Part shown: in pieces, positions 82-25,625 of the stretch
How positions within the stretch are numbered: position 1 is the stretch's first letter
How the letters are laid out: each line of letters opens with the position of its first letter
Assembly: GCA_021817905.1 (NCBI GenBank)
Contig: JAKAFM010000001.1
Location: 3,985 to 67,984 of the forward strand
Source of the DNA: a bacterium
Lineage (GTDB): Bacteria > Patescibacteriota > Microgenomatia > UBA12405
Length of the DNA: 64,000 bases
Direction: 5' to 3'
Notes under the pieces: model-generated
The model's database searches: none
Told to the model about the DNA's origin: nothing
The model's input: only the letters and a program-made list of their open reading frames with translations
Translations under genes and position numbers: made by a program

Positions 82-1821
82 TTAATATTGCGCCACCCGC
101 AAGACTTCTTCAATAGTAGTAATATTTTCCAAAACTTTAACATAACCATCTTGTTTCATCGTCAACATTCCTTCCTCCATTGCCAACTTTTGCAATGCTG
201 AGGAGGGGGCTTTTTCCACCACCAGTTTACTCAGTTTTTCCGATATCGGCATCACTTCATAAATAGCAATACGTCCTAAGTATCCAGTATTATTACACTG
301 ATCACACCCCTTAACTTTAGCCAACGTCATAGCTTTACCTTCACTTTTCCATTTTTCCTCAACCGATTCATATATTGGTCCCAACACCTGCTTCATATCG
401 GCCACTACCTCTGGGGGAATAGGTATTTGTTCAACACACGTTTTACACACTTTACGCAACACCCGCTGTCCCACTACACAATTAAGAGACGATACTAATA
501 GAAACGGCTCAACCCCCATATCCAACATCCGCGGTGGCACTCCAGAAGCATCATTGGTATGCAAAGTTGAAAACACCAAATGCCCGGTAAGTGAAGCATT
601 GATTGCCAATTCTGCTGTTTCTGTATCCCGAATTTCCCCAACCATAATGACATTAGGATCCTGACGCAAAAAAGACCTCATTGCCGAAGCAAACGACAAT
701 CCTGCCTGATTGTTAACTTGCACTTGATTGACTCCTTTAATTTGATATTCCACCGGGTCCTCAATCGTCATCACATTTACTGTTGGTTTTGCCACAATAT
801 CGAGAACCGAATAAAGCGTCGTAGTTTTTCCAGAACCAGTTGGTCCACAGACAATAATAATGCCATGAGGTCTAGCAATAGCATCCATTAAATTTTTAAG
901 TGCTCGACCTCTCAACCCTAAATCCTGCAAAGTCGGTACTTTTATCGACTTTTGCAATAACCGCATTACCACCTTCTCTCCATAAGTAGTTGGCACAGTT
1001 GATACCCGCAAATCAACATCACGGCCATCGACCGAAAAGAAAAAACGTCCGTCTTGTGGTACCCGCTTTTCATCAATCTTCAAATTGGACAAAATCTTTA
1101 TTCTTGAAACAACCGCGTCGTGAACATTGCGGGGTAAAATATATTTCTCCTGCAAAATACCATCAATACGATATCTGATCCGTACATTATCCTCCTGCGG
1201 TTCAATATGAATATCCGATGCCCGCGACTTCATGGCAAACTCCAAAATCGTCGAAACTATTTTTGCCACCGGAGCCTCAGCGGTAACTTTTTGCCTGCTC
1301 TCCGACAGCGCTTTCTCCTCGTCTTTATGTTCGTCAAGCGCTTTTGTTACTTCAGAGGTAATACTCTTTTCCCGTTCGTATTTTTCTTTTATAGCCTCAT
1401 CAATTTGTCGAGGCATAGCCATCGCCGTTTTAATTTTAAAGCTTGTTTTCTTTTCCAAAAATTCGACGGTTTCTAAGTCAACCGGATTCACCATGGCCAC
1501 CGACAAGGTTTTATTTTTGGTATCAATATCGTAAGGGACCAAATGATATCGCTCGGCTACACTTTCGGGAACCAATGCCAATGATTCCGGAGCAAATCCT
1601 ACTTTCTCCAGATCAATAAAAGGGACCCGTAAAAAATCAGCCTTTGCTTCGACTAATTCACGATCAGTTACCAACCTAAGTGCCCGCAAAATTGATTCTT
1701 CTGACTCGCCTGTTTTAAGCTGCCGTAAAGCCACCTCATCAGCTTTGGTCTGGTTAATCAATTCTCGATCAACCAAAACTTCTCGTAGACTCTTATAGAC
1801 CTTGGGGGCAGAATCAGTCAT
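82..1821 (-). CDS. pilB: Type IV pilus assembly ATPase PilB / GspE family
   Basis: 579 aa. Walker A motif GPTGSGKTTT. Carries the GspE/PilB N-terminal domain and the C-terminal tetracysteine motif CxxC...CxxC. Confidence 0.9.
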   Translation of the reverse strand: MTDSAPKVYKSLREVLVDRELINQTKADEVALRQLKTGESEESILRALRLVTDRELVEAKADFLRVPFIDLEKVGFAPESLALVPESVAERYHLVPYDIDTKNKTLSVAMVNPVDLETVEFLEKKTSFKIKTAMAMPRQIDEAIKEKYEREKSITSEVTKALDEHKDEEKALSESRQKVTAEAPVAKIVSTILEFAMKSRASDIHIEPQEDNVRIRYRIDGILQEKYILPRNVHDAVVSRIKILSNLKIDEKRVPQDGRFFFSVDGRDVDLRVSTVPTTYGEKVVMRLLQKSIKVPTLQDLGLRGRALKNLMDAIARPHGIIIVCGPTGSGKTTTLYSVLDIVAKPTVNVMTIEDPVEYQIKGVNQVQVNNQAGLSFASAMRSFLRQDPNVIMVGEIRDTETAELAINASLTGHLVFSTLHTNDASGVPPRMLDMGVEPFLLVSSLNCVVGQRVLRKVCKTCVEQIPIPPEVVADMKQVLGPIYESVEEKWKSEGKAMTLAKVKGCDQCNNTGYLGRIAIYEVMPISEKLSKLVVEKAPSSALQKLAMEEGMLTMKQDGYVKVLENITTIEEVLRVAQY

Positions 1822-7069: not shown

Positions 7070-7140
7070 GGGCCCGTAGTTAAACGGTATAACACGTCAT
7101 TCGCATTGACGCATTAGGAGTTCAATTCTCCTCGGGTCCA
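7070..7140 (+). tRNA. tRNA-Ala (anticodon CGC)
   Basis: Cloverleaf folds by hand: acceptor GGGCCCG/CGGGTCC with the G3:U70 alanine identity pair, anticodon loop TTCGCAT, T-loop TTCAATT. CCA is not encoded. Confidence 0.8.
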
Positions 7141-7208
7141 CTCTGCATTAGCACAAAGTCCGTGAGCTTTAGCGAAACGGATTGCAGAAAGGGCGGTTCG
7201 ACTCCGCC

Positions 7209-10200
7209 ATGGTCCACCCCATTTTTTATTCCTATGGATATAATGGTATAGTGAAGCGATTTTCTAAACTTTTAGCAGTAACCCTTATTCTAATTTTGGG
7301 AAGTTTTTTAGCCTATCGGCTTATTACTCAGTCACGACCTGTCCAGGCCGATTGGTACAACGATTCCTGGGCCTTTCGTAATGCTCTGCCTATAACCAGC
7401 CATTCTGTTGGCGAAACTAACGTTTATATCGTCGCCACGCTCAACATCAGTGCCACCGCCAACGCCCAGACTAACGATGCCGATATTCGCATTACCAAAA
7501 CAAACGGTGAAGTTTTACCCTATTACTTTGTCTCCGGAGTCGGCACCACCTCCATTGTCGTTCATGTTTTAATTGATAATTTTCCGGCTGGAGCTCAAAC
7601 ATTGTATTACTACTATGGCAACCCTAGCGCTCGGCCAATGGTCAGCCAAACTGATTTTTCCACTCTTGCCAGCAGCTACACCATCGGCACCCTCGGCTCT
7701 CAAGAAAAATCACCCGGCCCCCTTGCCTACTGGAAATTTGATGAAGGTCAGGGTTCAGTAACCAGTGATTCCGTCTCCAACCATTACCTAACTTTTGGCA
7801 CAGGTAGTTCCGCGCCATCCTGGGCAACCGAAGATCAATGTGTCAGTGGCAAATGTCTTTACTTTAATGGCAACAATTATTTGGCCAGCTCCGAAACATT
7901 TAACAATGTCCAATCTGTTTCTTTTTGGGTCAACCCCAAAAATGCGACACAAGGATTTGCCCTACCCTCATTTTCCCCCAGTACTTTACTTACCGGATAC
8001 ACTGGAAGCAATGCCAATTATTGGATATTTGAAACTACCGCTTCTAAGAGAATTGCTCAGAGTTTTCAACTAGGCCAAACCTCACAAATAGCTCAAATCT
8101 CATTTTACGGCCACCGATCAACTATTAATCAAAATTGGACCGTTCAATCCGATATTGAAACCGATAATGCTGGAATTCCATCAGGAACTATTATTAGCAC
8201 TAGTGATTGTATGCCATTTAATAATCTTGACACCGCCAACAATGTTCCCATTACTTTTAACTACAGCACACCCCCAACTTTGACGGGCAACACAACTTAC
8301 CATGTCGTATTTAAAATTTATAATGATTCATCCTGTACTACAGAACAAACTGTAAAAGATACCCAAAATTATGTTTTTATTCGATACAACACTACTAATA
8401 CCTACACTTCAGGTAATGAATCACTTTATAGTTCTAGTGACGTATGGACTGCCCAAACAGGAGAAGATGTCGCCTTCAGCGTTACCTCTACCAATAATGT
8501 TGTTGATATCGGCTCTTCTTCTGGGCAAATCGTTACCACCGGATTTTCGTCACCAACTATCTACATTAATGGCATTCTCAAAACAACACTTAATCTCAAT
8601 CAATGGCAACTTGTTACCGTCACTACTGCCACTCCTTTTTCAGCCGTCAATCCTAGTCTTGGGCAGTCAAACACCGCTTTTGCCACTGCTTATATGGATA
8701 ACTATAAACTATATTCTTATCAACTGACTGCTAACCAGGTCAAAGCAGAATTTAATTCTAAGGGGATCACTACCAATAAAGGTTCAGCCGTTAATCTAGG
8801 ATCCAACAACCGTAATTCCGATGCGTTATCTCAAGGGTTGGTCGGATATTGGAAATTAGATGAAAACATCGGTACTTCCACACTTGATTCTTCAGGAAAC
8901 AATAATACCGCCGTCTTCGGTACCGGCACTTCCGCTCCAAGTTGGGCCTCTGGTAAATTTGGTATTGGCTTAAGTTTTAATACCAATGATTACGCTTCCA
9001 TCGGAAACACCATTACTATTAGCAGCTTTTCCCTTTGGTATTATCCTACTACCACCGCTCCTGCTTTCCTCGAATTCGACGCATCAACCAACATTGGTGC
9101 ATCAGCCTCCACCATCTACACTAATGGCATTTCCTCTCCGAAAATTTATATTGACGGTAACCCATCACTCTCAATTGGCACGACTAATACTTGGCACCAC
9201 TTAGTTGTAACTACCAGCTCAACCATTATCGGCTCGTTGATCAAATTTGGAAAAGCCGGTTCCTTTTTTCTAAACGGTCAACTTGACGATATCCATTTTT
9301 ACAACCGCACCCTCTCTCCTTTAGAAGTCCAATATCTTTACGGTTGGGCTCCGGGTCCGATTGGCTATTGGAATTTTAACGAAAATAATAATCTCAACAA
9401 TATTGCTAACGATATTTCTGGTAGTAACAATCCTTTCACACTTTACGGACCTCTCTATACTGCTGGGAAATATGGTTCATCCTTAAAATTTAATGGTACT
9501 AGTAGCTATGGCGTCACCTCATCTCCTCTCACTATACTTAACGGAAAAGGTGCTTTTACCGTCTCTGCTTGGATAAACCCCACTTTTGCATCCAACGCCT
9601 CCACACGCCCACTTCGTCACATTGCTGCTTTAGGTGGAAGTTATGGACCAAATCTCAACTTTATTGACAATGGCACCAAATATTATATTGACTGTAGTGT
9701 TTGGAATACTGCAGTAACCGGCATAAACGTAAACACCTCCTCCACCGGACTTCCCACCTGGTCTGCCAATACTTGGCATTATTATACTTGCCGCTATACT
9801 GGTAGCATCATTGAATTATACTGGGACGGACAACTCTTAGCATCATCCGCCGGCTCAGGAAACGTTCACAATAGTGACGGCCCCGCTTATTTAGGCTCTG
9901 TCAATAGTAGCTTAGAGTTTTGGTCAGGACTAATTGATGACCTTAAAATTTACGACTACCCCCGTACCCAAAAACAGATCATTGAAGACATGAATGCCGG
10001 CCACCCCGCTGCCAACCCCAATTCAATGCTTGCCTACTACAAATTTGATGAAGGTTATGGATCCATTGCTAATAATTCCACCAATAATGGTTCAGTACTC
10101 AACGGCACCCTCGGCCCTGGTTCTTCCGCTCCCACTTGGACCAATAATGGCAAATTTGGCCGAGCTCTAAGTTTTAGCTCTACTAACAATGGTCAATATG

Positions 10201-12230
10201 TATCTGTCACCGACCCGGCCGATGGATCACTTGATATCGGCATCAGCCAACCCATTACACTTTCTACCTGGTTTAAACTCAACAGCCTGCCCGCACTCAA
10301 CATTTGGGGAACTTTATTAACTAAAGGTGCAACTAATGGTACTCAATCTGACAATTACATGCTTCAGTATGGCAACGCCGGAGGTAGTGACGAGTTAGAC
10401 GTATGCTTCACTCAAGCTGGCACCGGTACAATGCAGTGCTTCTCTTATGATGATAATAAAAATCAAACGCTTGACACCTCCCGCTGGCATCATTTAGTTT
10501 TTACCTACACCTTCGGTATCGCCAGTTCCGCCAAAATCTATTATGATGGCATTCTTAAAAACGGAACTTGGACTGCCGGTTCAGGAAACGTCATTCCCTA
10601 TACTGGTAACGATGCCCTCTGGATTGGAAATGATCATTACGCTACTTCTAGCTACGAACCGGTCAATGGCCTTATCGACGAAGTCAAAATTTACAACTAC
10701 GCCCTAACCTCCGATGAAATTAAGCTTGATTATAATAACGGTCTGGCCATCAATTTAGGTGCTTTCTCCCAATCGTCGGGCTCCACCGCCCCTGTCAACT
10801 CCACCGCTCAACAATATTGCATCCCCGGCGACACCTCCACTTGTTTACCACCCGTAGGTGAATGGAATTTTGACGAAGGCACTGGCACTTCTGCTTACGA
10901 TTCTTCTGGAAACGGAGGCACGGGGACACTTCTTGGAACCACCTCTTGGGCCACTGGAAAAATTGGCAAGGCCTTATCGTTTGATGGCTCATCCGGCTAT
11001 GTCAGTATTCCTAGTTCTACGTTTTTAAATATTACCGGCGATATCACCATCGAAGCTTGGGCAAAACCAAATCTTCTCGACAGCAATTACCACGATATTA
11101 TTTTTAAGGGAACCACTACCTCTAATTCCACTCGTCAATATGGGCTTCGACTTAATTCATCCAATAATTGGGAAGGATTACTTTACACCGGCACTACTGC
11201 CAATAGTGCCGGTAACGTTGCCGCTTCGGCTGCCAATGCTAACCGTTGGGATCATGTTGTTATGGTCAGAAGTGGAACAATTATGTATATCTATATCAAC
11301 GGCAAGCAAACCGATTACTCTTCCAATATCACCGGCTCACTTAATACTACTTCTAATATTGCTGCCGTCGGCAGAATTGGTGCTGCCAGTGGCGAATATT
11401 TTCCCGGTTTAATTGATAACGTTAAAATCTTTAATTATGCCCGCACTCCCGCTCAAATCGCCTATGATTACAATCGCGGCGGCGCCCTGTTATGGTACAA
11501 ACTAGACGAATGTCAGGGCAATATTGCCAATGATGCGTCAGGAAATAATAATAGCGGCACCATCACTATTGGTACCTCGGGTACTCAAGGAGCACTTGGC
11601 ACCTGCAACAATGGCACTGGCTCGACCGCAGCCTGGGGAGTTGGTTCTTCAGGACAGTTCAACTCCTCGCTTAGTTTTGATGGTACCGATGATTATCTCA
11701 GTACTACCTCAACTTTAAATTTATCACTATCAACTATCTCGACTGTCTCATTCTGGCTTAATTGGTCAAACTATACCAATAACGATAGCTTAGCAATGGA
11801 ATCAAGCATTAATTACAATTCAAACACTGGAGCCATCCTAATTGATCCCAACTCCTCAGCTAGCGGTGGTGGCAACTTTGAAGTTAGTATCCACGGTACT
11901 GGTTACGCCAACCTGCTATTTACTCGCCCTTCTGCTGGCGTCTGGCATCATTACACCTTTGTTATTGATTCCAGCACTTTAAACGGAAATATTACCGCCT
12001 ATGTTGACGGTAAACTTGTCAACGGCACTTTTTCAAGTGGTTTAAATGGTCCTTACTATCAGGGCAACTATACTTGGTACTTTATGAGCCGGGCTGGTAG
12101 TAGCCTCTTTGGAGCCGGGAAAATGGACGATATCCGTATTTTTAACTATGGACTCACAAAAACTCAAATCCAAACCCTTTATAACCAGAATTTTGCCGCG
12201 CGCTTTGCTCCAACTGTTGGCAAACCTTAA
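7209..12230 (+). CDS. Giant membrane-anchored surface protein with at least six LamG / concanavalin-A-like lectin repeats
   Basis: The ORF runs 7182-12230 (1682 aa); the probable start is M at 7209, ahead of the signal-anchor FSKLLAVTLILILGSF. The unit W-x-FDEG-xG...DSSGN...G...SAPSW..GKFG.ALSFDG ... IDEVKIYNxALT recurs about every 230 aa, which is the LamG_3-type signature. Confidence 0.8.
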   Translation: MVHPIFYSYGYNGIVKRFSKLLAVTLILILGSFLAYRLITQSRPVQADWYNDSWAFRNALPITSHSVGETNVYIVATLNISATANAQTNDADIRITKTNGEVLPYYFVSGVGTTSIVVHVLIDNFPAGAQTLYYYYGNPSARPMVSQTDFSTLASSYTIGTLGSQEKSPGPLAYWKFDEGQGSVTSDSVSNHYLTFGTGSSAPSWATEDQCVSGKCLYFNGNNYLASSETFNNVQSVSFWVNPKNATQGFALPSFSPSTLLTGYTGSNANYWIFETTASKRIAQSFQLGQTSQIAQISFYGHRSTINQNWTVQSDIETDNAGIPSGTIISTSDCMPFNNLDTANNVPITFNYSTPPTLTGNTTYHVVFKIYNDSSCTTEQTVKDTQNYVFIRYNTTNTYTSGNESLYSSSDVWTAQTGEDVAFSVTSTNNVVDIGSSSGQIVTTGFSSPTIYINGILKTTLNLNQWQLVTVTTATPFSAVNPSLGQSNTAFATAYMDNYKLYSYQLTANQVKAEFNSKGITTNKGSAVNLGSNNRNSDALSQGLVGYWKLDENIGTSTLDSSGNNNTAVFGTGTSAPSWASGKFGIGLSFNTNDYASIGNTITISSFSLWYYPTTTAPAFLEFDASTNIGASASTIYTNGISSPKIYIDGNPSLSIGTTNTWHHLVVTTSSTIIGSLIKFGKAGSFFLNGQLDDIHFYNRTLSPLEVQYLYGWAPGPIGYWNFNENNNLNNIANDISGSNNPFTLYGPLYTAGKYGSSLKFNGTSSYGVTSSPLTILNGKGAFTVSAWINPTFASNASTRPLRHIAALGGSYGPNLNFIDNGTKYYIDCSVWNTAVTGINVNTSSTGLPTWSANTWHYYTCRYTGSIIELYWDGQLLASSAGSGNVHNSDGPAYLGSVNSSLEFWSGLIDDLKIYDYPRTQKQIIEDMNAGHPAANPNSMLAYYKFDEGYGSIANNSTNNGSVLNGTLGPGSSAPTWTNNGKFGRALSFSSTNNGQYVSVTDPADGSLDIGISQPITLSTWFKLNSLPALNIWGTLLTKGATNGTQSDNYMLQYGNAGGSDELDVCFTQAGTGTMQCFSYDDNKNQTLDTSRWHHLVFTYTFGIASSAKIYYDGILKNGTWTAGSGNVIPYTGNDALWIGNDHYATSSYEPVNGLIDEVKIYNYALTSDEIKLDYNNGLAINLGAFSQSSGSTAPVNSTAQQYCIPGDTSTCLPPVGEWNFDEGTGTSAYDSSGNGGTGTLLGTTSWATGKIGKALSFDGSSGYVSIPSSTFLNITGDITIEAWAKPNLLDSNYHDIIFKGTTTSNSTRQYGLRLNSSNNWEGLLYTGTTANSAGNVAASAANANRWDHVVMVRSGTIMYIYINGKQTDYSSNITGSLNTTSNIAAVGRIGAASGEYFPGLIDNVKIFNYARTPAQIAYDYNRGGALLWYKLDECQGNIANDASGNNNSGTITIGTSGTQGALGTCNNGTGSTAAWGVGSSGQFNSSLSFDGTDDYLSTTSTLNLSLSTISTVSFWLNWSNYTNNDSLAMESSINYNSNTGAILIDPNSSASGGGNFEVSIHGTGYANLLFTRPSAGVWHHYTFVIDSSTLNGNITAYVDGKLVNGTFSSGLNGPYYQGNYTWYFMSRAGSSLFGAGKMDDIRIFNYGLTKTQIQTLYNQNFAARFAPTVGKP

Positions 12231-12730
12231 TTCAGCTGTACTGAAGTCACGATCTTTCCAAAATCTTTCTCTAATTCAGGATCATTACTATTAGCAGTTA
12301 AAGCTACCGACACTACTTGGTCTCCAAACATTTGCCAACAAACCCGCTCCCAAACATCTTTTTTTTGATAACATCGCCAATCATCAATTGCCAAGGCTTG
12401 ATACAAATCATTTTTTAGACTTCTCATTTTTATATCTGAAAGCTCATCTAAATTTCCACTATAATCTTTAGCCATTACTACCAGCTGTTGGGACAAACCA
12501 ACCGTTCCCACTAACAATACCTTTTTTTCTTCACTGCTTAAAACAGTCAAAGAGGGTGGATACTTAAAATGAAATGTTTTCCCTTGATAATCAATCCAGG
12601 CCGTTGATTGGCTTGCCAGCGGCTCTATCTTTGGGGTAGTTACTGTTCCCACACTAGGTTGTCGCATCCACCACCAAAAAACAGCTATCAATATCGCCAC
12701 TGTTCCCGATAACAATAACCATTTTCTCAT
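12227..12730 (-). CDS. Hypothetical membrane-anchored protein
   Basis: 167 aa with N-terminal TM (LLLSGTVAILIAVFWWW). It is the last gene of the minus-strand surface-protein operon. Confidence 0.5.
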   Translation of the reverse strand: MRKWLLLSGTVAILIAVFWWWMRQPSVGTVTTPKIEPLASQSTAWIDYQGKTFHFKYPPSLTVLSSEEKKVLLVGTVGLSQQLVVMAKDYSGNLDELSDIKMRSLKNDLYQALAIDDWRCYQKKDVWERVCWQMFGDQVVSVALTANSNDPELEKDFGKIVTSVQLN

Positions 12731-13410
12731 TATTTCCCGGCAATAATCAAAATATCAGCATCGGGCTGCGTCTCGCCATCAGGCAACGTTTGCACCTTAC
12801 CATTTACTAATTGAGCCATATCACTAGCTAACCCGGCATAATTACCCGTTAAATCTACTACTACTGTCTGGCCATAATCGCTTCGAGCCGCATTGCCGTG
12901 ACCAGTTACCTGAATACCGTCAATACCGCTTATTTTCTGCTCAACAGTTTTAGCTAAATTGGCCACTGTTGTCCCGTTTAACACCACTACTCTAACTTTT
13001 GCGGCCACTCCCGTTGGTGATGGTTTAACTGGCACCGCTGATTGATCATTAATCGTCAATGGCACCATATCGATAACTTTATTAGTTGACGGTCGATACA
13101 AAATTGCCCGTCTAATCTTGGTATAAATAAGCACTTTATCACCATTTTGTGATTTTTGAAAAAACGGCTGATCCTTTAATTTATCTTTATCCACGATAGT
13201 CGCCAAAGTAGGGGATTCGTCGGTGGGCAAATCCATATACTGACTAATTTTAGTCACATAACTTAAAACCTCGGCTGCCGCCACTTTTTGTGGATTTTGA
13301 GATGCTTTTTTATATTGCCGATAAAAATAATATGCTGTTCCGCTTAAACCCAAAATCAAGAGCACAATACCTGCGCCCGCTATCCACTTAACAATTGGTT
13401 GTTTCATCAT
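12730..13410 (-). CDS. LytR_C domain (LytR cell-envelope-related attenuator C-terminal) protein
   Basis: N-terminal TM, then C-terminal VRVVVLNGTTVANLAKTV...GNAAR..YGQTVVV, a LytR_C pattern. Start chosen at MMKQPIVKW (13410) rather than the ORF-track start at 13521. Confidence 0.6.
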   Translation of the reverse strand: MMKQPIVKWIAGAGIVLLILGLSGTAYYFYRQYKKASQNPQKVAAAEVLSYVTKISQYMDLPTDESPTLATIVDKDKLKDQPFFQKSQNGDKVLIYTKIRRAILYRPSTNKVIDMVPLTINDQSAVPVKPSPTGVAAKVRVVVLNGTTVANLAKTVEQKISGIDGIQVTGHGNAARSDYGQTVVVDLTGNYAGLASDMAQLVNGKVQTLPDGETQPDADILIIAGK

Positions 13411-13427
13411 ATTCAATTTTACCGCAA

Positions 13428-16370
13428 TTAAAAAGTGAATGGTTGCCTTACTCCATTTGAAAACCATTCCCCATGCCGCATAATTTGATCTAATGTTGGC
13501 CCGGAAGAAAAAATCCAACAAGTACCATTATTCCCCATATTAGTTGATCCTACCCCAATGGTCGCATTAGCCGATCCGACCGCACACCCGGAATCCTTAA
13601 TACCTATATAAGAAATGGTTGACTGGGCATTCAAGAAATTTACCAACCACTGCGAACCGGGAGTATCGGATTGCACCAATGCCAACGTCCCGGCGACCCC
13701 GGTCACCGTCATTGTCCCTCCGATAGTAAACACTGGTGTTGATCCCACTCCCGCTTCAAACTGAACTACTTTACCCGGATTGGTAATACTTAAACTATTG
13801 AAAGCCATCGATGTTGTTCCCACCGACACTACTGTCGTCGCCCCTCCGCTTAAATTAACCAATCCTGTATTAGCATTAAAAGTACCATTATTAGTTAACG
13901 CCCCCGATACGTCAAGCGTATTTGCCCCCGCTGTATAGGTTCCTCCAATAGTTACATTATTGGTAAAAACATTTCCTGCCGGTTGATACAAATTCCCCGG
14001 AAACACATATAACTTATACTGACTAAATTGGTTGCGAACATCGGTCGTCAAGGTATTTCCCACATCAACATTAAAAAAAACATCACTTGTTCCTGTTCCC
14101 GCCACCGAATTATCGTAATTTGCCAAATCAGTATTACCAATCGATACTGTCCCGCCACTATCACCAATTGTTAAAGTTTGCTCGTATAAATTAAGCCCAG
14201 ATATATTCCCTGAACCTGAGTATTCTGTCACTGTATTCGCCCGAGCCGTTACCCCAACTCCAGAAACAAAAGCAGTTAGCACATCGTTAGGTACCGGCTG
14301 ATCAACACTACTAAAAACATAAGTTCCCCCGGAGATAGTGGTTGTCGTCGATCGCAAACTGCCGTTAACGGCATAACGTATTGTTTCCCCTGTCGCACAA
14401 TTTGTGGTCATATCATATTTTTTACACGACCCAGAAATTGAGATCGGCGCATTTTTAATTTCTACCGCAATCCCACCAATATTTGAAGTTGTACTTTGGG
14501 TCATATTGACCGCCGTTGCCCCATATGCCGTCTTCCATTCAACTTTCATACTCGTTGTCGGATTATTAAAAGCTACCCCCGTACCCCCACTATATCCAGC
14601 TCCAGCCGTTAACGAATTGGCATTATTAACCGCATTAGCAAATCCACCCGCCGTGATATTAGAACTTGCCGACAAGGCACTTAAATTAATTGTCAACCCG
14701 GTGGCCGCTGTTGAACTATCACTCGCCCCCACCCCATACTGCACAACCGCCCCCGACCCGTCAGTTCCCGACGTATCCACCCCGCTAAATTCGACGATAA
14801 TATAACCCAGACCGGTTGCACTCTGCCCCCAGGTAATTGTGTTAGTTCCTGTACTCAATCCCGACGTCTTTAGTGCCCGGAATAAGGTAATATTACTTAA
14901 TTTTGTTGACGTAGTATTAAATTGCTGATTGGCAACTTTTACCCAATTAAGGCCTGTGGTTGTTGTTACTGTCGGCGTACTGGTCGCCGTTCCATAGGTT
15001 TGTATGGTCCACATTAAATAAAGCCGGTTTGCCACCGGCGTAAAACTATTAGTAACGGTTGACGTCGCCGCTGTTGTCGTTGCTCCTTGAGTAATCTGGG
15101 CTACCGTTACATAGTCAACGGCAATCTGCCACTCCCGATTTTCACTAAAGACAGTCTGGTTATTACTCACAAATTCTAGCGGTCCAACCGTATAAAATTG
15201 CGGACTTATCGATGGAGTTTGAAAGGTATATCCTAAAATAAGATCATCTCCATTTTTGGCATTCACTTCCCAAATAACTTTTTTTATGCCCAACCCTGGT
15301 TGCTCTTCAATCCGATCATAATTTTGGACTCCACCTTCACTCTGTTGATCAATCACAAAACTCAACGGCACTGTTTCCGAAACTTCACCCTTAAAATCAG
15401 CACCCATCGTTACAGACATGGTCATCGGATAAGTATAAGGTGGAAATACCCGGGTAATACTATCGCGATCAATACTCGCCCAATTGAATTCTGCTACCTC
15501 GAACTGATTAGTAATCGTATATGATCCATTTTTTGTCACCGCACTCATCGTCATTTGATACGTTCCACTGTCCGGCCCCACCATATAAGTAGCTTCATAA
15601 TCCGGTTGTAGCGTGTAATCGTGGCCCGAACACACTGAATTTATTTTTACCAGTCCATTTGCAGTCGACAAAGTATCTATCTTACCGGTTACCGTATTCT
15701 TAATATCCAAAGTTACTGCTGCATCACAAACCGTCTTACCCTGTTCATCCAAAACCGCCATCGAAATCAAACTATTTTCCAAGGGTCGATAAACCGCCTT
15801 GTTAGTATTAAGGGCCAACACTCCCCACAGAAAATCCTGTTGACTTATCACCCCAAAACTGTCCGACATTGTCACCCGATATTTTCCCGGCATAAACTGA
15901 TGCGGAGGATCAACTTTTACTATCGTCACATCATCAATTTGTTCATTTTCAACATTGGCAGTTATTAACTCACCCTGATTATTTCTAACCTCAGTTTTTA
16001 TGGTATTGACGGTAGTGTTTAACAGTTCCGCCTCAACCTTCTCGCCATTATCATACATACTTTTCATTCCCTGACGAAGCTTTGCCGGAACCCTTAATTG
16101 CGCCGAACCTCCGGTTGGAATTGCCAGTCCACTTCCTGGCGGTAAGGTGGGTATAAGCAACAAAGGTTGTCCACTTTGGCTAGCTACATTAATTGGTGGG
16201 GGAGTCAGATCTATAGGCGCCAAAGTGGACACCACCGATGTCCCAACCTGGCCACTCCCGGTAGCCAAAAAGGTTGTCGGACTGAGTTCTTGAGCATAGG
16301 CCACATTTCCCGACACTATTGTCACTACCATCCAACAACCAACCAATAATAGTAAATTTTTCCATCTCAT
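13428..16370 (-). CDS. Large secreted surface protein with a beta-helix-like, T/G/N-rich C-terminal half
   Basis: 980 aa. Sec signal peptide MRWKNLLLLVGCWMVVTIVSGNVAYA. Long runs of short G/T/N-rich beta-strand repeats. Ends ...NGTCWIFSS. Confidence 0.65.
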   Translation of the reverse strand: MRWKNLLLLVGCWMVVTIVSGNVAYAQELSPTTFLATGSGQVGTSVVSTLAPIDLTPPPINVASQSGQPLLLIPTLPPGSGLAIPTGGSAQLRVPAKLRQGMKSMYDNGEKVEAELLNTTVNTIKTEVRNNQGELITANVENEQIDDVTIVKVDPPHQFMPGKYRVTMSDSFGVISQQDFLWGVLALNTNKAVYRPLENSLISMAVLDEQGKTVCDAAVTLDIKNTVTGKIDTLSTANGLVKINSVCSGHDYTLQPDYEATYMVGPDSGTYQMTMSAVTKNGSYTITNQFEVAEFNWASIDRDSITRVFPPYTYPMTMSVTMGADFKGEVSETVPLSFVIDQQSEGGVQNYDRIEEQPGLGIKKVIWEVNAKNGDDLILGYTFQTPSISPQFYTVGPLEFVSNNQTVFSENREWQIAVDYVTVAQITQGATTTAATSTVTNSFTPVANRLYLMWTIQTYGTATSTPTVTTTTGLNWVKVANQQFNTTSTKLSNITLFRALKTSGLSTGTNTITWGQSATGLGYIIVEFSGVDTSGTDGSGAVVQYGVGASDSSTAATGLTINLSALSASSNITAGGFANAVNNANSLTAGAGYSGGTGVAFNNPTTSMKVEWKTAYGATAVNMTQSTTSNIGGIAVEIKNAPISISGSCKKYDMTTNCATGETIRYAVNGSLRSTTTTISGGTYVFSSVDQPVPNDVLTAFVSGVGVTARANTVTEYSGSGNISGLNLYEQTLTIGDSGGTVSIGNTDLANYDNSVAGTGTSDVFFNVDVGNTLTTDVRNQFSQYKLYVFPGNLYQPAGNVFTNNVTIGGTYTAGANTLDVSGALTNNGTFNANTGLVNLSGGATTVVSVGTTSMAFNSLSITNPGKVVQFEAGVGSTPVFTIGGTMTVTGVAGTLALVQSDTPGSQWLVNFLNAQSTISYIGIKDSGCAVGSANATIGVGSTNMGNNGTCWIFSSGPTLDQIMRHGEWFSNGVRQPFTF

Positions 16371-18697
16371 CGGGCGTTATATCTCAAAATAATATCACCG
16401 GCCCGGGTCAAGGCACTCGATGTATTCTTTGCCGCCAGTTTTATTCTAATAATTGCGGTCTGCCCGGCCGCATTCCACTGTGGTGACGAACCACTGCTCA
16501 GTGTCGTACTGGTACATCCCGAACTCGACCATGCTGTTGAGGCTGTTGAACCTATTGAACAGACACTGGTCCCCGGAGTATCGGTATCATTATTCACCCG
16601 ATAAGAAATATAGTTATCACCTGTAGTCCCAAGGCCAGTCTGATAATTGAATTGCAGTGCGCACGTTGAACCCGGGCAACTTCCTGTCTGCCAGCTACTA
16701 AAATCACCCGGCAAAGTTACTCTGACCAACACCGAATAATCCTGAAGGGCCGCATTAGTCGATGACCACTGATAATAATTTTGCCACCCGCTGGTGCCAG
16801 TATTCAAATTATTATCCGAAGTCAAAGATCCATCATTAGATGTCGAACCGTCTTTCGACAATGATGCCCCCGAATACTCTGGCGAAAGTACTATTTGAGA
16901 AGTATAGGTTGACGAACCAGCGCAGGCCCCCCAAGTACCGTTGGCATAACACCGAAAAGCATTCGAGGCAGTACTATAATACATCGCTCCATTTGTTCCC
17001 GCCGGATCACTACTACCATTATCCATCACAAACAAAATTGGTGAAGTTTTTCCCACTCCAGTCCCGATAATCACCTCGCCGGTTGGCCCGACATCAAAAA
17101 TAACATTGCCGGCATTAAAGGTTCGTAACGTTAAATCTGAACTTCCATAGATCGGTCCCGATTCGACAGACAAAGGTGCTCCCGATCGTATAGTTGACGA
17201 AGTTGGGTTGGTAAAATACATATCATAAGCAATACCTACATCACCAGCCGAAGTTAAGTTAAACGGATTATTTACCGTTGATTGCTGTGGCGATACCGAA
17301 GCGATATCACTCCCATTATTATTAAGATCCAAAATATTACCGTTACCATCACTTTCGACATACATTCCCCCAGCATTTGGATCGGTATTACCATTATAAA
17401 TACCTGCTACATAACCTGTACTTCCAGTACCATAAATATCAAATTGGTGACCCAGGCCGGAAGTTCCTATCCCCACATTACCACCACTACCAACATAAAA
17501 TACTTGGGTATTTCCTAATCCCAATAATGAAAAATAAAAAGATGAAACCCCTACATTGGTATTTTGGGTTAAAGTCCCACCTAAACCCACTGCCCCCGAT
17601 ATTAATTGCAAACCATTGGTAGCAGTCGCTGACCCCCCTGGTGGCAACGTTCCTTGAACCAAAACACCACTGCTATTGATATACAATACCGTGTTTCCCA
17701 CCCCTACCGGAATTCCTGTCATCGTTACCGACCCTCCAATTGAAAGGTTGGTAGAAATATTAACATTACCAACAACATCCAATTTATACCCCGGATTTGA
17801 TGTGCCAATTCCCACCCAACCACTAGTCCCAATAAACAACGCCTGACTATTACCCAACCCCAAAAAATTAACCGTAAATGATGAAGTACCAATTGAGGTA
17901 TTTTGTACCAAGGTTCCACCCAAACCAACCGAACCAGCAATCAAAGATAACCCATTTGTTGTTGATGCCGAGCCACTGGGAGGTAAAGTTCCTTGAGTAA
18001 TACTTCCATTACTGCTGATATATAAAACAGTCGATCCTGTTCCCAAGGGAATATTAGTCAAACTTAATGACCCGCCAATTGCCAAGTTACCCGTAACCCC
18101 TACGCCTCCCGTGATTACTAAGCCCGCAAAAAGAGGCGAATTAGTCGTCTGTAAACTCTGATTCAAACTAACCCCAACTCCCGAAGTCACAAAAGAATCT
18201 CCAAAACTTATCGTTTTGCCATTAGGAATGGTTAAGGTTCCGGTCGTATTAGTTACCGTCAATCCCGACACTTTCAAAGCATTCATCGCATAGGGCACAG
18301 CCGTAAATTGTAACCGAGGGCTCATATCACCATCACCATTAAAATTTACCGATAAATAAAGGCTATCAGTATTAAAATCAATTGACGATGGAAAAGTAGT
18401 GTAAGTTCCTAAAGCCACATTAAAAGTCCCGCTGGTTACCGGCACCTGTGTTGTCCCCGAATTCCAAGTTTCTGTCCATAACGATGACCCTGCCGACAAA
18501 GCATTCCAAATTGTAAAAGTAAAATTATAACTTCCATCCGCCACATTGGTTCCATCAGTTGACCCTATCCCTTTATTAACCACCTTACCCTGAAAATTAA
18601 TTTTTTGATTTATTCCTGTCGCTGCCAACACAGAGCCTGACCCTGCCAATCCCGCCACTAAAATCACCACAAACACAAGCACTTTTAAGTACTTCAT
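16367..18697 (-). CDS. Secreted protein with tandem ~100-aa repeats and a tail-fibre-like GIGT(S/T)xP motif
   Basis: 776 aa. Signal peptide. Two tandem repeats (G[SN]TVLYI[SN]S.G...QGTLPP.GSA..TNGL.L..G.VGLGGTL.QNT..G.SSF....LGLGN.Q......G.VGIGTS). VGIGTSNPGYKLDV resembles phage tail-fibre and chaperone-of-endosialidase-neighbour repeats. The start overlaps the stop of the upstream gene (ATGA). Confidence 0.65.
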   Translation of the reverse strand: MKYLKVLVFVVILVAGLAGSGSVLAATGINQKINFQGKVVNKGIGSTDGTNVADGSYNFTFTIWNALSAGSSLWTETWNSGTTQVPVTSGTFNVALGTYTTFPSSIDFNTDSLYLSVNFNGDGDMSPRLQFTAVPYAMNALKVSGLTVTNTTGTLTIPNGKTISFGDSFVTSGVGVSLNQSLQTTNSPLFAGLVITGGVGVTGNLAIGGSLSLTNIPLGTGSTVLYISSNGSITQGTLPPSGSASTTNGLSLIAGSVGLGGTLVQNTSIGTSSFTVNFLGLGNSQALFIGTSGWVGIGTSNPGYKLDVVGNVNISTNLSIGGSVTMTGIPVGVGNTVLYINSSGVLVQGTLPPGGSATATNGLQLISGAVGLGGTLTQNTNVGVSSFYFSLLGLGNTQVFYVGSGGNVGIGTSGLGHQFDIYGTGSTGYVAGIYNGNTDPNAGGMYVESDGNGNILDLNNNGSDIASVSPQQSTVNNPFNLTSAGDVGIAYDMYFTNPTSSTIRSGAPLSVESGPIYGSSDLTLRTFNAGNVIFDVGPTGEVIIGTGVGKTSPILFVMDNGSSDPAGTNGAMYYSTASNAFRCYANGTWGACAGSSTYTSQIVLSPEYSGASLSKDGSTSNDGSLTSDNNLNTGTSGWQNYYQWSSTNAALQDYSVLVRVTLPGDFSSWQTGSCPGSTCALQFNYQTGLGTTGDNYISYRVNNDTDTPGTSVCSIGSTASTAWSSSGCTSTTLSSGSSPQWNAAGQTAIIRIKLAAKNTSSALTRAGDIILRYNAR

Positions 18698-18825
18698 TAT
18701 ATATTTTTCGATAGGATAGGTAAATATATCCTAAAAAACCAGGAAAAATTAAATCCTAGTATCTAATTGTAGTGGTCAGGGGGAAAGGGGTAAAGACATC
18801 ACTATAGATCAAATTATCATTGCAT

Positions 18826-19770
18826 TTAATTCGGTAACTTAGGGTTTTTTTTAATAAATTTTTTAGAAATATAAATAGTACTCCCAAATAATCCAATTAT
18901 GAAGGCCAACAACAACCAAAACAAAGGAGCTCCGGCAGAAAAATAATGATCTTTCACTAATGTCGTATCAGCCACCCCATCGTAACGATAATTTACATTT
19001 ATTGTGTAGTTACCCGGAAAAAAGAGACGAGACAGAGGATAAAGTTGAGTCCGATAAACTCTAAAACTTTCCGGCAAAATAATTGCGGAATCGCTATTAA
19101 TTAACCCCTTGCCCACCACGCGCCCCAAAACATCAACCACAGTAACTGTCCCTCGAGGAACTAAATGAACATTACCACTATTTTGAAAACGTAATAAAAC
19201 AGTCGACGGCAGCCGAAACCAAGCAGCATCGTGTTCAATTTTTCTTAAATCAAGTTGTTTAATCTCTGCGCCACCCTGTTTGTCAACAAAAAATAAACTG
19301 GCATATGCTTGATTTACATTCACAACACTCCCAGGCTTAACATCACTTACCTGACTAAAAAGCACCGCTCCATAATGTCCGCCTGAAGTCAATGAATCTT
19401 TATTAAGAACCGTCACTTTAACTTTCTCCTCACTTCCCGCCGCCACCTCGAGCCTATCCTTTTCCAATTGCAACCATGACGCCAGCGAATATTTATATTT
19501 CTGCATTTCCTGGCCATTCACTCCCAAAAATTGAACCCCTCCAGAATCATTTAGGCTCCCAAAATCAACCACTGATAATTGAAAAGTTTGACTAAAAGTA
19601 TTATGGTTCGCTACCGTCAAAATTTCACTGTGAGAATTCTCTGCTGGTAACAATGTTACCGACACAAATGGAGGAGATATTGAAAATCCACCACTGACAG
19701 CAAAACACCTATCCGGCCTCAATAAAATAATCATCACTAACAATAAAAATTGCTTTAAAAACGTATGCAT
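18826..19770 (-). CDS. Secreted protein with a C-terminal TM anchor and basic tail (DUF916/DUF3324-like architecture)
   Basis: 314 aa. N-terminal signal peptide. C-terminal LFWLLLAFIIGLFGSTIYI followed by KKFIKKNPK. Paralogous to 19771-20814. Confidence 0.55.
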   Translation of the reverse strand: MHTFLKQFLLLVMIILLRPDRCFAVSGGFSISPPFVSVTLLPAENSHSEILTVANHNTFSQTFQLSVVDFGSLNDSGGVQFLGVNGQEMQKYKYSLASWLQLEKDRLEVAAGSEEKVKVTVLNKDSLTSGGHYGAVLFSQVSDVKPGSVVNVNQAYASLFFVDKQGGAEIKQLDLRKIEHDAAWFRLPSTVLLRFQNSGNVHLVPRGTVTVVDVLGRVVGKGLINSDSAIILPESFRVYRTQLYPLSRLFFPGNYTINVNYRYDGVADTTLVKDHYFSAGAPLFWLLLAFIIGLFGSTIYISKKFIKKNPKLPN

Positions 19771-20814
19771 CTACTTTCTTTTAATCATCCGATATAACAA
19801 ATAGGTCATTTGGCCCACTCCAAATAATAACAAAATAACTACCACTCCAACCCCTATAAGTATTCTCCACGGGACCACCCAAAAACTTAAACTCGCCTCA
19901 ATGGGAACATCCCGCTTACCATCATCATAAGCTAACAACATTAATGCCGTATATTTTCCAAATCGTAATTTCTTAATTTGCGAAAAATCCCAATTAAGTT
20001 GTTGGATGGGATTTCCTTTGCGATCAGTCTCTACCACCTTATTGTCAATTTTATCCGTATAGACAGGAAAACCATCACTCCATGCACTTGTGAATATCCT
20101 CGATGAATTTGGTAAAACATTTCCCTTAAGATCATTAATATCCAAAATAGCCACATCTTTTTTGTCCCCTTGGCTAATAAAAATGTTTCCTTTTGGAGCC
20201 ACATGAACATTTCCCTGGTTAAGCAACTTAATAGTAAAATTTACCGGTAAAAATTCAAATACTTTCTTCGGTACCGAAAATTCAGTAACCTCAATTTTTC
20301 GCACTGCATTTGGAACCCTTACTTCCAACAAGACCAAAGACGCCACTGCCCCCAAAATTTTAGTTGACCGCTCTCCTGCAACTGTCGGATCATTAAATCG
20401 GGAAAAAGTAACTGCGTAATAATAGCCAAATGCTGCGTTTGGAGGCACAGAAATATTCATCGTAATCGTTTTCCACTCATTCGCCACCATCGTAAAGTCG
20501 TTATCTGAAAAATGTACCCAATCAAAGTAATCATCCCCCGGGGCTCGATCTAATAATCTTGGGTTACCCTCATCTCCATAGGCCGAAAATTTCATTAAAC
20601 TAACATGAATTTTTTCTGGTAACAAACCGGCATTCTTAATTTTCAACTGCGCCGAAACCGTAGACCCTGGTTCAGTCACTAAATTAATGGGAAGAGGGGA
20701 CACCACCAAATTTAAACCGCCCACTGTTTGCGCCAATACCAGATTACTTTTTCCTCCAATAAGGAATAAAATTCCTAAAATCAAACCACTCCAAAACCTA
20801 AATCTAATTTTCAT
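19771..20814 (-). CDS. Secreted protein with a C-terminal TM anchor and basic tail (paralogue of 18826-19770)
   Basis: 347 aa. Signal peptide. C-terminal ILIGVGVVVILLLFGVG followed by YRMIKRK. Shares the central motif P(K/R)G...ILP.SSR with the neighbouring gene. Confidence 0.55.
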   Translation of the reverse strand: MKIRFRFWSGLILGILFLIGGKSNLVLAQTVGGLNLVVSPLPINLVTEPGSTVSAQLKIKNAGLLPEKIHVSLMKFSAYGDEGNPRLLDRAPGDDYFDWVHFSDNDFTMVANEWKTITMNISVPPNAAFGYYYAVTFSRFNDPTVAGERSTKILGAVASLVLLEVRVPNAVRKIEVTEFSVPKKVFEFLPVNFTIKLLNQGNVHVAPKGNIFISQGDKKDVAILDINDLKGNVLPNSSRIFTSAWSDGFPVYTDKIDNKVVETDRKGNPIQQLNWDFSQIKKLRFGKYTALMLLAYDDGKRDVPIEASLSFWVVPWRILIGVGVVVILLLFGVGQMTYLLYRMIKRK

Positions 20815-20822
20815 TCCAAAAC

Positions 20823-21833
20823 TTAAAAATTACCGGCACCAACTATGGTCCAGGTATCTGTATAGTCACTGCCAGCAGCCTTGGTTGCAATCATCGCCAC
20901 ATGAGCCTTAAGCCAAACAGTATCATTGTTAGTTTTTCCTGTTCGGAACACAAATGGTTGCAAAGAAGTACTAAATGCTCCTCCGGATGTAGTCCCGTTC
21001 CCAGCATAAGATGTCGCTGCCGTCAGCGACCCAGACCCTGTGCCCGCAGTTACTCCAACATCCAAAATATAGCAATCAGATCCGGAGGTACAGGTTACCG
21101 TCGATCCGCCCACTACTCCTGTTGTCCCGATACTTTCCCCAGTCGTCGCCGACGATAATGCAGCATTAGCGCTTTTTATCCACCCAGTCCACCCCTTGGC
21201 CGCATTAGTCGACACCGAAACTCCAACTCCGATCGTTGAGACGACAGATCCGGAACTTAAATTACCTGTAAAGGCATCCGTTGTTCCCGTTATTGAAAAA
21301 TTAAAAGTTGAAGGTACGTTTGCCGTAATTACCACTTGATCGCTTGACAAATATTGAACCGCCACCGTTGTTTGATCAATCAAAGCATCACCCGAAGTTG
21401 TTGTTTTCACGATATCAAACGCTGAACCTGGTGAAGCCGGTGTTGATATACCAATATTTATATTAAAGCCATAAGTTTGGCCAACTGACAACGCCGTTAC
21501 TCCCGTTATATCAACTTCCGAAGTTCCTGTCCGGGCTGCTACCAAAGTCCCCGGCAAAGTCGAGACCCCCGTATCCAAATTAGTAACCGACACACTAACT
21601 CCAGCCCCAACCACGGCTGATCCAAAAATGAGCTTTACTTTAGCAACTGTTGCCCCCGTCACCGGAATAAAGGTAACGTAAACATTCGACGGAGTGTTTG
21701 CCTGCATCCGATCATAACGAACCGTTGCCCGGGTAAGCTGTGCCGCCAACACCGACTGACTCGACATTGAAAAAAGGATTGCCGCCAACACCAACACCGA
21801 CAACAAAGAAACGACCGATCTTAATATTTTCAT
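20823..21833 (-). CDS. Secreted T/S/G-rich surface protein with a conserved C-terminal tail (possibly WxL-like)
   Basis: 336 aa. Signal peptide. The C-terminus ...SDYTDTWTIVGAGNF is homologous to the C-terminus of 21887-22939. Confidence 0.5.
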   Translation of the reverse strand: MKILRSVVSLLSVLVLAAILFSMSSQSVLAAQLTRATVRYDRMQANTPSNVYVTFIPVTGATVAKVKLIFGSAVVGAGVSVSVTNLDTGVSTLPGTLVAARTGTSEVDITGVTALSVGQTYGFNINIGISTPASPGSAFDIVKTTTSGDALIDQTTVAVQYLSSDQVVITANVPSTFNFSITGTTDAFTGNLSSGSVVSTIGVGVSVSTNAAKGWTGWIKSANAALSSATTGESIGTTGVVGGSTVTCTSGSDCYILDVGVTAGTGSGSLTAATSYAGNGTTSGGAFSTSLQPFVFRTGKTNNDTVWLKAHVAMIATKAAGSDYTDTWTIVGAGNF

Positions 21834-21886
21834 GGTTATGATTTAAATATGTCTTGTTTACGATAATTTGTCAAGCTGATCATTAT

Positions 21887-25584: not shown

Positions 25585-25625
25585 TTTAGTCTACCAACCT
25601 TGCAACACTATAGTAAACTTACTAC

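Follow-up and report, generated by a model that had tools for sequence, protein, structure and literature searches.

A DUF2341 protein with six LamG units and a predicted Sec signal, encoded in a lineage-variable slot behind tRNA-Ala in a Shapirobacteria-like Microgenomates bacterium

Bacteria of the candidate phyla radiation (CPR) are thought to live attached to other cells. To our knowledge, few of their attachment molecules are known beyond the type IV pili of Saccharibacteria. The concanavalin A (ConA)-like proteins of Patescibacteria have been speculated to mediate attachment, and ConA-like genes have been reported on Patescibacteria phages (PMC12911398). A LamG domain has been proposed to form the outward-facing adhesive tip of the twin-arginine translocation (Tat)-fimbriae of haloarchaea (PMC11821415), and in COG/arCOG annotation DUF2341 proteins figure among the components of type IV pilus-like systems. 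Here, we analysed 64,000 nucleotides of contig JAKAFM010000001.1 (assembly GCA_021817905.1, positions 3,985 to 67,984 of the forward strand), hereafter the window, to which all coordinates refer. At 7182-12230(+) it encodes a giant protein that carries a DUF2341 domain and exactly six LamG units behind a predicted Sec signal peptide. We lean towards the view that this product is a Sec-exported, extracellular, multi-module, multivalent binding protein of a Shapirobacteria-like Microgenomates bacterium. The assignment of the organism as a Microgenomates-type, Shapirobacteria-like CPR bacterium follows from the affinity of the LigA encoded in the window, which is closest to those of Candidatus Shapirobacteria and Woesebacteria (59-63% identity to named matches), in agreement with the CPR affiliation suggested originally.

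The protein is encoded by a single uninterrupted open reading frame (ORF), of 1,682 codons if TTG 7182 is taken as the start, and the ORF list, ARAGORN and Rfam confirm its position directly after tRNA-Ala. The LamG/ConA-like fold named in the original prediction was likewise recovered. Against Pfam Laminin_G_3 (PF13385; gathering threshold 27.6 bits), the whole protein scored 303 bits (E=5e-91) over five stretches, and units 2-6, scanned singly, each passed the threshold with 28.5-104.6 bits. The profile and structure searches both returned a lectin-like jelly roll rather than an unrelated fold, and the protein thus belongs to Laminin_G_3 by profile score as well as by fold. Six copies of the start motif [WY]xx[DN]E were located (ORF residues 184, 557, 730, 953, 1228 and 1439), and five of the end motif (I/L/M)D(D/E/N)xx(I/F)(Y/F)(N/D); a sixth end motif, in unit 1, is degenerate (YMDNYKLYSYQLT). 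The repeat motifs described earlier are therefore real; the regular spacing of ~230 amino acids (aa) is not, since the units measure 372, 176, 222, 274, 214 and 246 aa, and 'six or more' repeats becomes six and no more. Pairwise identity among the units is 23-36%.

All six units lie on the plus strand. Unit 1 (7716-8831) is a short-type frame split by an insertion and has no Pfam match when scanned alone; a hidden Markov model (HMM) built from units 2-6 recovers both of its halves (E=1.5e-11 and 5e-3), BLAST aligns it with unit 2 at 40% over 82 aa, it aligns at both ends with the first units of homologs, one homolog has an uninterrupted version of its short frame, and its model matches 5hon_A in Foldseek with a target-normalized template modelling (TM) score of 0.63. 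Unit 2 (8832-9359), also of the short type with 176 aa, scores 28.5 bits against Laminin_G_3 and E=7e-56 against the custom HMM, which was trained on it. Unit 3 (9360-10025, E=4.5e-22 against Laminin_G_3) is followed by unit 4 (10026-10847, E=4.6e-22), which ends in a Cys-containing linker (YCIPGDTSTC) retained in the family consensus, and by unit 5 (10848-11489, E=7e-30) and the C-terminal unit 6 (11490-12227, E=1.6e-17), whose end is taken from the translation. For unit 5, an AlphaFold model made with a 30-sequence alignment as input reached a predicted local distance difference test (pLDDT) of 89 and a predicted TM score (pTM) of 0.88, and Foldseek returned 501 matches in the PDB at E<=1e-3. 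The 50 of these 501 that were listed are all lectin-like jelly-roll domains, headed by the arabinan-binding domain 4 of the glycoside hydrolase family 43 (GH43) arabinanase AbnA (TM 0.76-0.79, E=7e-13) and including, among the other top matches, the HcN lectin-like domains of tetanus and botulinum toxins and a trans-sialidase lectin domain. Judged by profile and predicted structure, the repeats are true LamG/ConA-like jelly rolls. A search of the whole protein against PDB sequences gave nothing at E<=0.01. A GH16-type ConA-like glucanase was ruled out, as the protein lacks the catalytic ExDxxE motif and Pfam scans of the whole protein and of the units matched no glycoside-hydrolase family.

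The protein joins an existing, widespread and uncharacterized family and is an ordinary find for Microgenomates and CPR bacteria. Hundreds of proteins of 1,300-2,600 aa have the same architecture at 30-42% identity, the named ones being annotated as 'DUF2341 domain-containing protein' or 'LamG domain-containing protein', and at least 518 loci encoding a signal peptide, DUF2341 and six LamG units turned up when one genome was scanned for each GTDB species. These loci span Shapiro-, Roizman-, Woese-, Davies-, Levy- and Gottesmanbacteria, WWE3, CPR3 and Wirthbacteria, and genomes often carry several paralogs, frequently in tandem; the window itself holds no other LamG or DUF2341 paralog. The present protein falls within this Microgenomates family, and one identical to it is present in public assemblies (GCA_027424545.1 and others). 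Exactly six unit matches were found in 73 of 121 homologs, most of the others being split matches, and for each query unit 33-40 of the top 40 matches were the unit at the same position in homologs (34 for unit 2, 34 for unit 3, 38 for unit 4 and 40 for unit 6). Because each unit is orthologous to the same-position unit in homologs, the six-unit array is ancient, fixed and not expanding, and the repeat expansion between strains raised by the original prediction does not fit a family in which six units keep fixed orthologous positions. At the DNA level, the only repeat between units is one 51-nucleotide match at 76% over the start motif, and no tandem repeats were found within the gene; recent expansion and template-variable repeats of the kind made by diversity-generating retroelements were rejected on this ground.

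Conservation is distributed unevenly along the family. The full-length alignment has a mean column identity of 31%, and the inter-unit linkers are conserved across it. The mean majority fraction is 0.63 in DUF2341, the best-conserved part, and 0.55-0.67 at the unit edges, falling to 0.21-0.37 in the unit centres. The records of many family loci bear the title 'uncultured Gammaproteobacteria' or 'Pseudomonadales', and those of a few Terriglobia, Anaerolineae, Vitreimonas or Micrarchaeia; such labels outside the CPR are probably placeholder or wrong taxonomy or mis-binned contigs. In one Microgenomates genome (L004, 16243-24518), a gene called at 9,905 aa with no Pfam match lies 1.7 kb downstream of a family gene.

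The N terminus bears on how the protein leaves the cell. Three starts come into consideration, of which GTG 7251 is probably the true one, or else ATG 7209. The GTG 7251 product (MKRFSKLL...) aligns with homologs from residue 1 in a full-length alignment with 24 homologs, which makes 7251-12230(+) the likely coding sequence, for a 1,659-aa precursor. ATG 7209 would give 1,673 aa, the database protein P0121, and both TTG 7182 and ATG 7209 lie within a pseudo-tRNA described below. The mature protein is identical whichever of GTG 7251 and ATG 7209 applies. From hydropathy and the homolog N termini, a Sec-type signal peptide is predicted at 7251-7349(+): MKRFSK, the hydrophobic region LLAVTLILILGSFLAY and then RLITQSRPVQA↓DW. 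Its hydrophobic segment, at ORF residues ~30-48, is the sole hydrophobic window of the protein, and V-Q-A↓D-W comes after it. All 24 homolog N termini have Ala at -1 before a conserved xW(F/Y)(N/D)(D/E), with V/A/T/S/I at -3. Signal peptidase I recognizes a pattern of Ala at -1 and a small residue at -3. Because the -3/-1 pattern fits this rule, the segment is probably a cleavable Sec signal rather than a membrane anchor, and the 'membrane-anchored' label first given to the protein is probably wrong. The signal is of the Sec type and not class III (prepilin). Twelve Cys residues, arranged as six local pairs, were counted in favour of export. At the other end, where the chain reads ...NQNFAARFAPTVGKP, the translation and hydropathy profile show neither an LPXTG motif nor a C-terminal transmembrane segment; a sortase-anchored Gram-positive adhesin of the MSCRAMM type (microbial surface components recognizing adhesive matrix molecules) was ruled out, as the C terminus lacks LPXTG followed by a hydrophobic segment and a charged tail.

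The first description of the protein as 'all-LamG' does not stand, as it has an N-terminal DUF2341 domain and an insert of ~180 aa in unit 1. The N-terminal beta-sandwich domain occupies 7350-7715(+), of which the Pfam match covers about 7479-7640. DUF2341 (PF10102; gathering threshold 23.4 bits) was detected at ORF residues ~57-178 with 34.5 bits in the whole protein and 28.4 bits in the N-terminal segment alone, so that the protein is a member of this Pfam family by score. AlphaFold rendered the DUF2341 region as a confident beta-sandwich (pLDDT ~82-97, mature residues 11-120); the model of the N terminus with unit 1 was confident only there and in parts of the LamG frame, and a fold search with it returned weak LamG matches only, leaving the DUF2341 fold unassigned.

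The insert (7956-8501(+), residues ~259-440) contains the Cys343/Cys385 pair and was carried by none of the 120 family proteins retrieved. An exhaustive HMMER search over 1.84 billion representative proteins found 224 relatives at E<=1e-3, 23 of them at E<=1e-10; a word-indexed homolog search, unlike this one, gave no matches. Because HMMER finds these 224 matching proteins, with several copies in some of them, the insert is an independent domain. Further copies are found in other LamG/DUF2341 giants and, alongside DUF4082, in the distal tail protein (Dit) of a siphophage, and the insert matches phrog_877; the LamG units in turn match large phage virion-protein PHROGs. The insert has no Pfam match, with DUF4082 absent even at E<=5, and two of eight insert relatives scanned gave DUF4082 at 19.1 and 14.7 bits, below the 28.4-bit threshold; the relationship to DUF4082, if any, would be remote. 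The AlphaFold model of the insert was not confident (pLDDT <50). The consensus of its family reads ...rlAQgF...G.PtG...veIetDsaG.PSGTvlatS...F.F.tPp.Lta.TtYHlVl.... As an observation in its own right, this insert family (proteins P0122-P0270), with at least 224 representative proteins and no Pfam model, is a candidate new family of binding modules.

The binding-protein reading builds on the observed export signal, domain composition, fold, family-wide architecture and genomic context, and extends them to signal cleavage, surface retention through DUF2341 and a class of ligand or adhesion. In outline, the signal peptide would be cut at VQA↓DW, and the mature chain of ~1,626 aa would open with the DUF2341 beta-sandwich. 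As the most conserved part of a protein with no other anchor, DUF2341 may serve as a docking or retention module. The six jelly rolls, with conserved framework edges and highly variable central loops, would act as ligand-binding modules, to which unit 1 of the present genome may add a DUF4082-like module of a kind also found in phage tail proteins. The likely job would be multivalent binding of glycans or glycoproteins on another cell or matrix, that is, adhesion or ligand capture. An extracellular binding role appears to be the most reasonable reading of the sequence, and an adhesin role is plausible. The idea of a host-attachment adhesin is itself standard speculation, already in print for the ConA-like proteins of Patescibacteria (PMC12911398). 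Two points weigh against this reading. Once the signal is cleaved, the protein has no recognizable retention element (no LPXTG, C-terminal transmembrane segment, S-layer-homology or cell-wall-binding repeats) and could therefore be released. Moreover, the strict positional orthology of the six units would fit a structural role as well as it does a lectin array.

An intact tRNA-Ala(CGC) lies directly upstream of the gene at 7070-7141(+) (ARAGORN; Rfam tRNA, 61.2 bits), with the TTG-started ORF beginning 40 nucleotides past it, and is nearly identical to the tRNA-Ala that follows pth in a relative (L082). It is followed by a pseudo-tRNA-Ala at 7143-7217(+) that ARAGORN does not call. The 5' part of the latter is scrambled; 7181-7217 keeps the T-arm and acceptor end and matches the 3' half of the tRNA-Ala(CGC) of another relative (L084) at 35 of 37 nucleotides. 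Comparison with these two relatives explains the sequence as a pseudo-tRNA-Ala; a hidden transfer-messenger RNA (tmRNA) was rejected, with just 11 bits to Rfam cyano_tmRNA, and so was an intron-containing tRNA, for which relaxed ARAGORN yielded implausible intron models only. The pseudo-tRNA has the appearance of a scar left by recombination or integration at a tRNA hot spot. At 58 other loci the family gene has no tRNA immediately before it, and the tRNA-Ala adjacency thus belongs to the present genome and not to the family.

The same two relatives show what varies at this site. In L084, whose LigA is 67% identical, a 154-aa ORF comes after pth and tRNA-Ala and precedes homologs of the 167-, 263-, 980- and 776-aa genes of the window, with the LamG giant missing. 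L082 has about 2.6 kb in place of everything between 7.1 and 25.6 kb and becomes collinear again from the window's genes at 26.3 kb onwards. A block of ~18.5 kb (7070-25600), from pth/tRNA-Ala to the 99-aa/YknX/ABC/FtsX genes, is lineage-variable. These comparisons and the 35/37-nucleotide pseudo-tRNA match place the LamG gene in a variable slot marked by a tRNA recombination scar, within a block of surface-protein genes that differs between lineages. The slot contains no integrase, phage structural or replication gene, and the insertion is essentially one gene; the composition profile shows no island-like anomaly. In every 1-kb window of 1-30000 the GC skew is negative, between -0.10 and -0.33 save in the last (-0.04), regardless of gene orientation. 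Elsewhere in the window, a direct repeat of 57 nucleotides at 88% identity (45792-45848 and 46146-46202, 354 nucleotides apart) is unrelated to the six-LamG gene.

Downstream of the LamG gene runs a convergent cluster of nine genes (12227-25584(-)), for proteins of 167, 263 (LytR_C), 980, 776, 314, 347, 336, 350 and 882 aa, most of them with N-terminal signal-like segments. The nine-gene block is absent from L082 and partly present in L084; it belongs to the lineage-variable block and is a possible functional partner locus. Two of the nine proteins, the 314-aa one among them, are paralogs whose C termini carry transmembrane segments. The 314- and 347-aa proteins resemble WxLIP_PGBD below threshold, and homologs of the 314-, 347- and 980-aa proteins adjoin family genes in L003, L004 and 10-11 of 77 other loci. 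The 336- and 350-aa proteins end alike, in ...(I/V)xGAGNF and ...IASANF. In the 776-aa secreted protein (16367-18697(-)), the N-terminal ~70 aa carry a motif INFQGK...GxYxFxFxIW...LWTE...V.V..G.F...LG, which recurs at 40-60% identity in genes near family members at 28 of the 77 loci.

A related operon adjoins family genes elsewhere, and such secreted-protein operons provide supporting context for the binding-protein reading. It stands on the same strand upstream of family genes at 10-11 of 77 loci, those of the query's closest relatives included, as well as in L003 (3855-9890) and L004 (5629-9357), and in at least seven loci it lies directly upstream; L005, L015, L017, L027, L029, L035, L051, L075 and L077 are among the loci where it was noted. 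Its order is ([249]-[289]-)[484]-[WxLIP-like, 333 aa]-[296]-[Big_1, 139 aa], that is, a secreted protein of ~484 aa, a WxLIP_PGBD-like protein of ~330 aa with a C-terminal transmembrane segment, a protein of ~296 aa and a small Big_1 protein. Of the operon proteins, only Big_1 passes a Pfam threshold. Homologs of some of these genes lie in the window at 18826-20814 and 13428-16370, downstream of the LamG gene, on the opposite strand and within the nine-gene run. For the secreted proteins encoded nearby, Pfam had little to offer. The WxL-type cell-surface complex loci of Firmicutes pair WxLIP_PGBD (DUF916) with WxL-domain proteins; here, WxLIP_PGBD was matched in proteins with a C-terminal transmembrane segment at 24.3, 19.9 and 13.7 bits against a threshold of 27.3, and no WxL domain was detected. 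The nine-gene run may be an undescribed surface assembly. As the operon directly precedes family genes in Shapirobacteria and other Microgenomates, we also entertain a more specific model, speculative and in our view unlikely to hold as stated, in which the [484]-[WxLIP-like]-[296]-[Big_1] operon would specify a CPR surface assembly not described so far, with the DUF2341 and six-LamG proteins as its exchangeable, specificity-determining adhesins; DUF2341 would plug the protein in, and recombination at hot spots such as the tRNA-Ala slot would swap variants. If so, variant swaps between lineages would change host or substrate range.

Other functions can be fitted to much of this evidence. The six jelly rolls could form a structural component of the envelope or matrix, a rigid spacer or lattice element in the manner of an S-layer, sheath or fibre. 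The fixed six-unit architecture, positional orthology and linkers conserved over hundreds of species would suit such a role, as would the several, frequently tandem paralogs per genome and the further large secreted proteins encoded by neighbouring genes. However, units with variable centres in conserved frames are more in keeping with binding surfaces under diversification than with a lattice, and the nearest structures in the PDB are binding modules. The gene is also missing at this site in close relatives, as would rarely be expected of an essential envelope protein, even if they may have paralogs elsewhere; we regard the structural explanation as unlikely. Binding might also be directed at substrates rather than at a host, with the units and insert acting like carbohydrate-binding modules that hold environmental polysaccharides for uptake or for degradation by partner enzymes. 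Here the best structural match, an arabinan-binding domain of GH43 AbnA, speaks in favour, together with the weak DUF4082 likeness of the insert, which is found in modular glycan-binding contexts; yet the protein and unit scans hold no glycoside-hydrolase domain and no GH16 ExDxxE motif, and no genes for carbohydrate-active enzymes or sugar transporters are adjacent in the window or in most loci. We give this alternative a small chance.

A tip adhesin associated with type IV pili would accord with what is described in archaea, where DUF2341 proteins are encoded in Epd pilus loci as hypothesized tip adhesins (PMC4858521) and the DUF2341 gene in the epd locus of M. maripaludis was recovered in a transformation-defect screen (PMC10133366). 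The window adds PilB at 82-1821(-), 5.4 kb upstream of the LamG gene, with PilT, PilC and pilins just past its edge; a type IV pilus cluster was also noted at 1-4184 of L001, and relatives include a prepilin peptidase. But these pilus genes are on the other strand, with six unrelated genes intervening (holB, Fic, a GT2 glycosyltransferase, LigA, pth and the tRNA), PilB, PilT and PilC are absent from the 10 kb around the family gene at all 77 loci, and the signal is not that of a prepilin. The upstream synteny is, moreover, kept without the LamG gene, from the full pilus cluster to pth in L082 and from holB to pth only in L084. Because of the missing linkage and this retained synteny, the proximity in the window is coincidental, and a pilus-tip role is quite improbable. 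Still less credible, to the point of being nearly negligible, is a phage origin, with the gene as cargo of an element integrated at tRNA-Ala and its product as a receptor-binding or virion protein. The variable slot, the duplicated 3' half of the tRNA, the matches of the LamG units to phage virion PHROGs and of the insert to phrog_877 and Dit, and the ConA-like genes reported on Patescibacteria phages (PMC12911398) would all be explained by it; against it stand the lack of phage or integrase genes in the slot, the unremarkable composition, the Sec signal peptide and the fact that the whole architecture is a conserved chromosomal family. Both the pilus-tip and the phage-cargo explanations are disfavoured.

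The present copy alone adds little, since databases already list the family and adhesion has been suggested in the literature before. What goes beyond existing annotation is that the six-unit architecture is ancient and position-specific, that a previously unannotated domain also found in phage tail proteins is inserted into unit 1, and that the gene stands in a variable tRNA slot inside a lineage-variable block of secreted-protein genes. A family of exported proteins this abundant, with members in hundreds of species and several paralogs to a genome, and made of lectin-type modules with variable loops, is a sensible candidate for studies of host or substrate recognition.

Compared with described systems, the protein shares folds and domains with several and its whole plan with one. 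The HcN domain of clostridial neurotoxins and the C-terminal lectin domain of trypanosomal trans-sialidase have the same jelly roll (TM 0.68-0.78), and Pfam Toxin_R_bind_N and TS_C gave weak matches in the unit scans; at 14-19% identity, and in proteins of unrelated biology, this is a likeness of fold only. Domain 4 of AbnA from Geobacillus stearothermophilus (PDB 5HON/5HO2) is a LamG_3-type jelly roll like unit 5, superposing with a root-mean-square deviation of 2.5-2.8 A at 21% identity, but it is an accessory module of an enzyme, whereas no catalytic domain is found here. TafC of the haloarchaeal Tat-fimbriae (NCBIfam NF052521; PMC11821415) has the LamG_3 domain in common, matched with 128.7 bits at profile positions 147-362; it differs in its Tat signal, single LamG and N-terminal pilin-like donor-strand domain, which is unmatched here, in contrast to the Sec signal and six LamG units of the present protein, and membership of the TafC family of fimbrial proteins was ruled out, as the LamG part alone was matched and the score fell short of the 410-bit cut-off. 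The DUF2341 proteins of archaeal Epd loci (arCOG03508/MJ1470 group; PMC4858521, PMC10133366) share DUF2341 and a large, secreted, multi-domain format, whereas the present family lacks both a conserved pilus linkage (0 of 77 loci) and a class III signal peptide. Closest is the Microgenomates family itself, represented for example by MBI2465307.1 of Candidatus Shapirobacteria, with which the protein has its architecture, linkers and unit-by-unit orthology in common at 30-42% identity. Among the family proteins retrieved, the present copy alone carries the ~180-aa insert in unit 1 (0 of 120 others), and its gene follows tRNA-Ala in a variable slot where other members follow the Big_1 operon.

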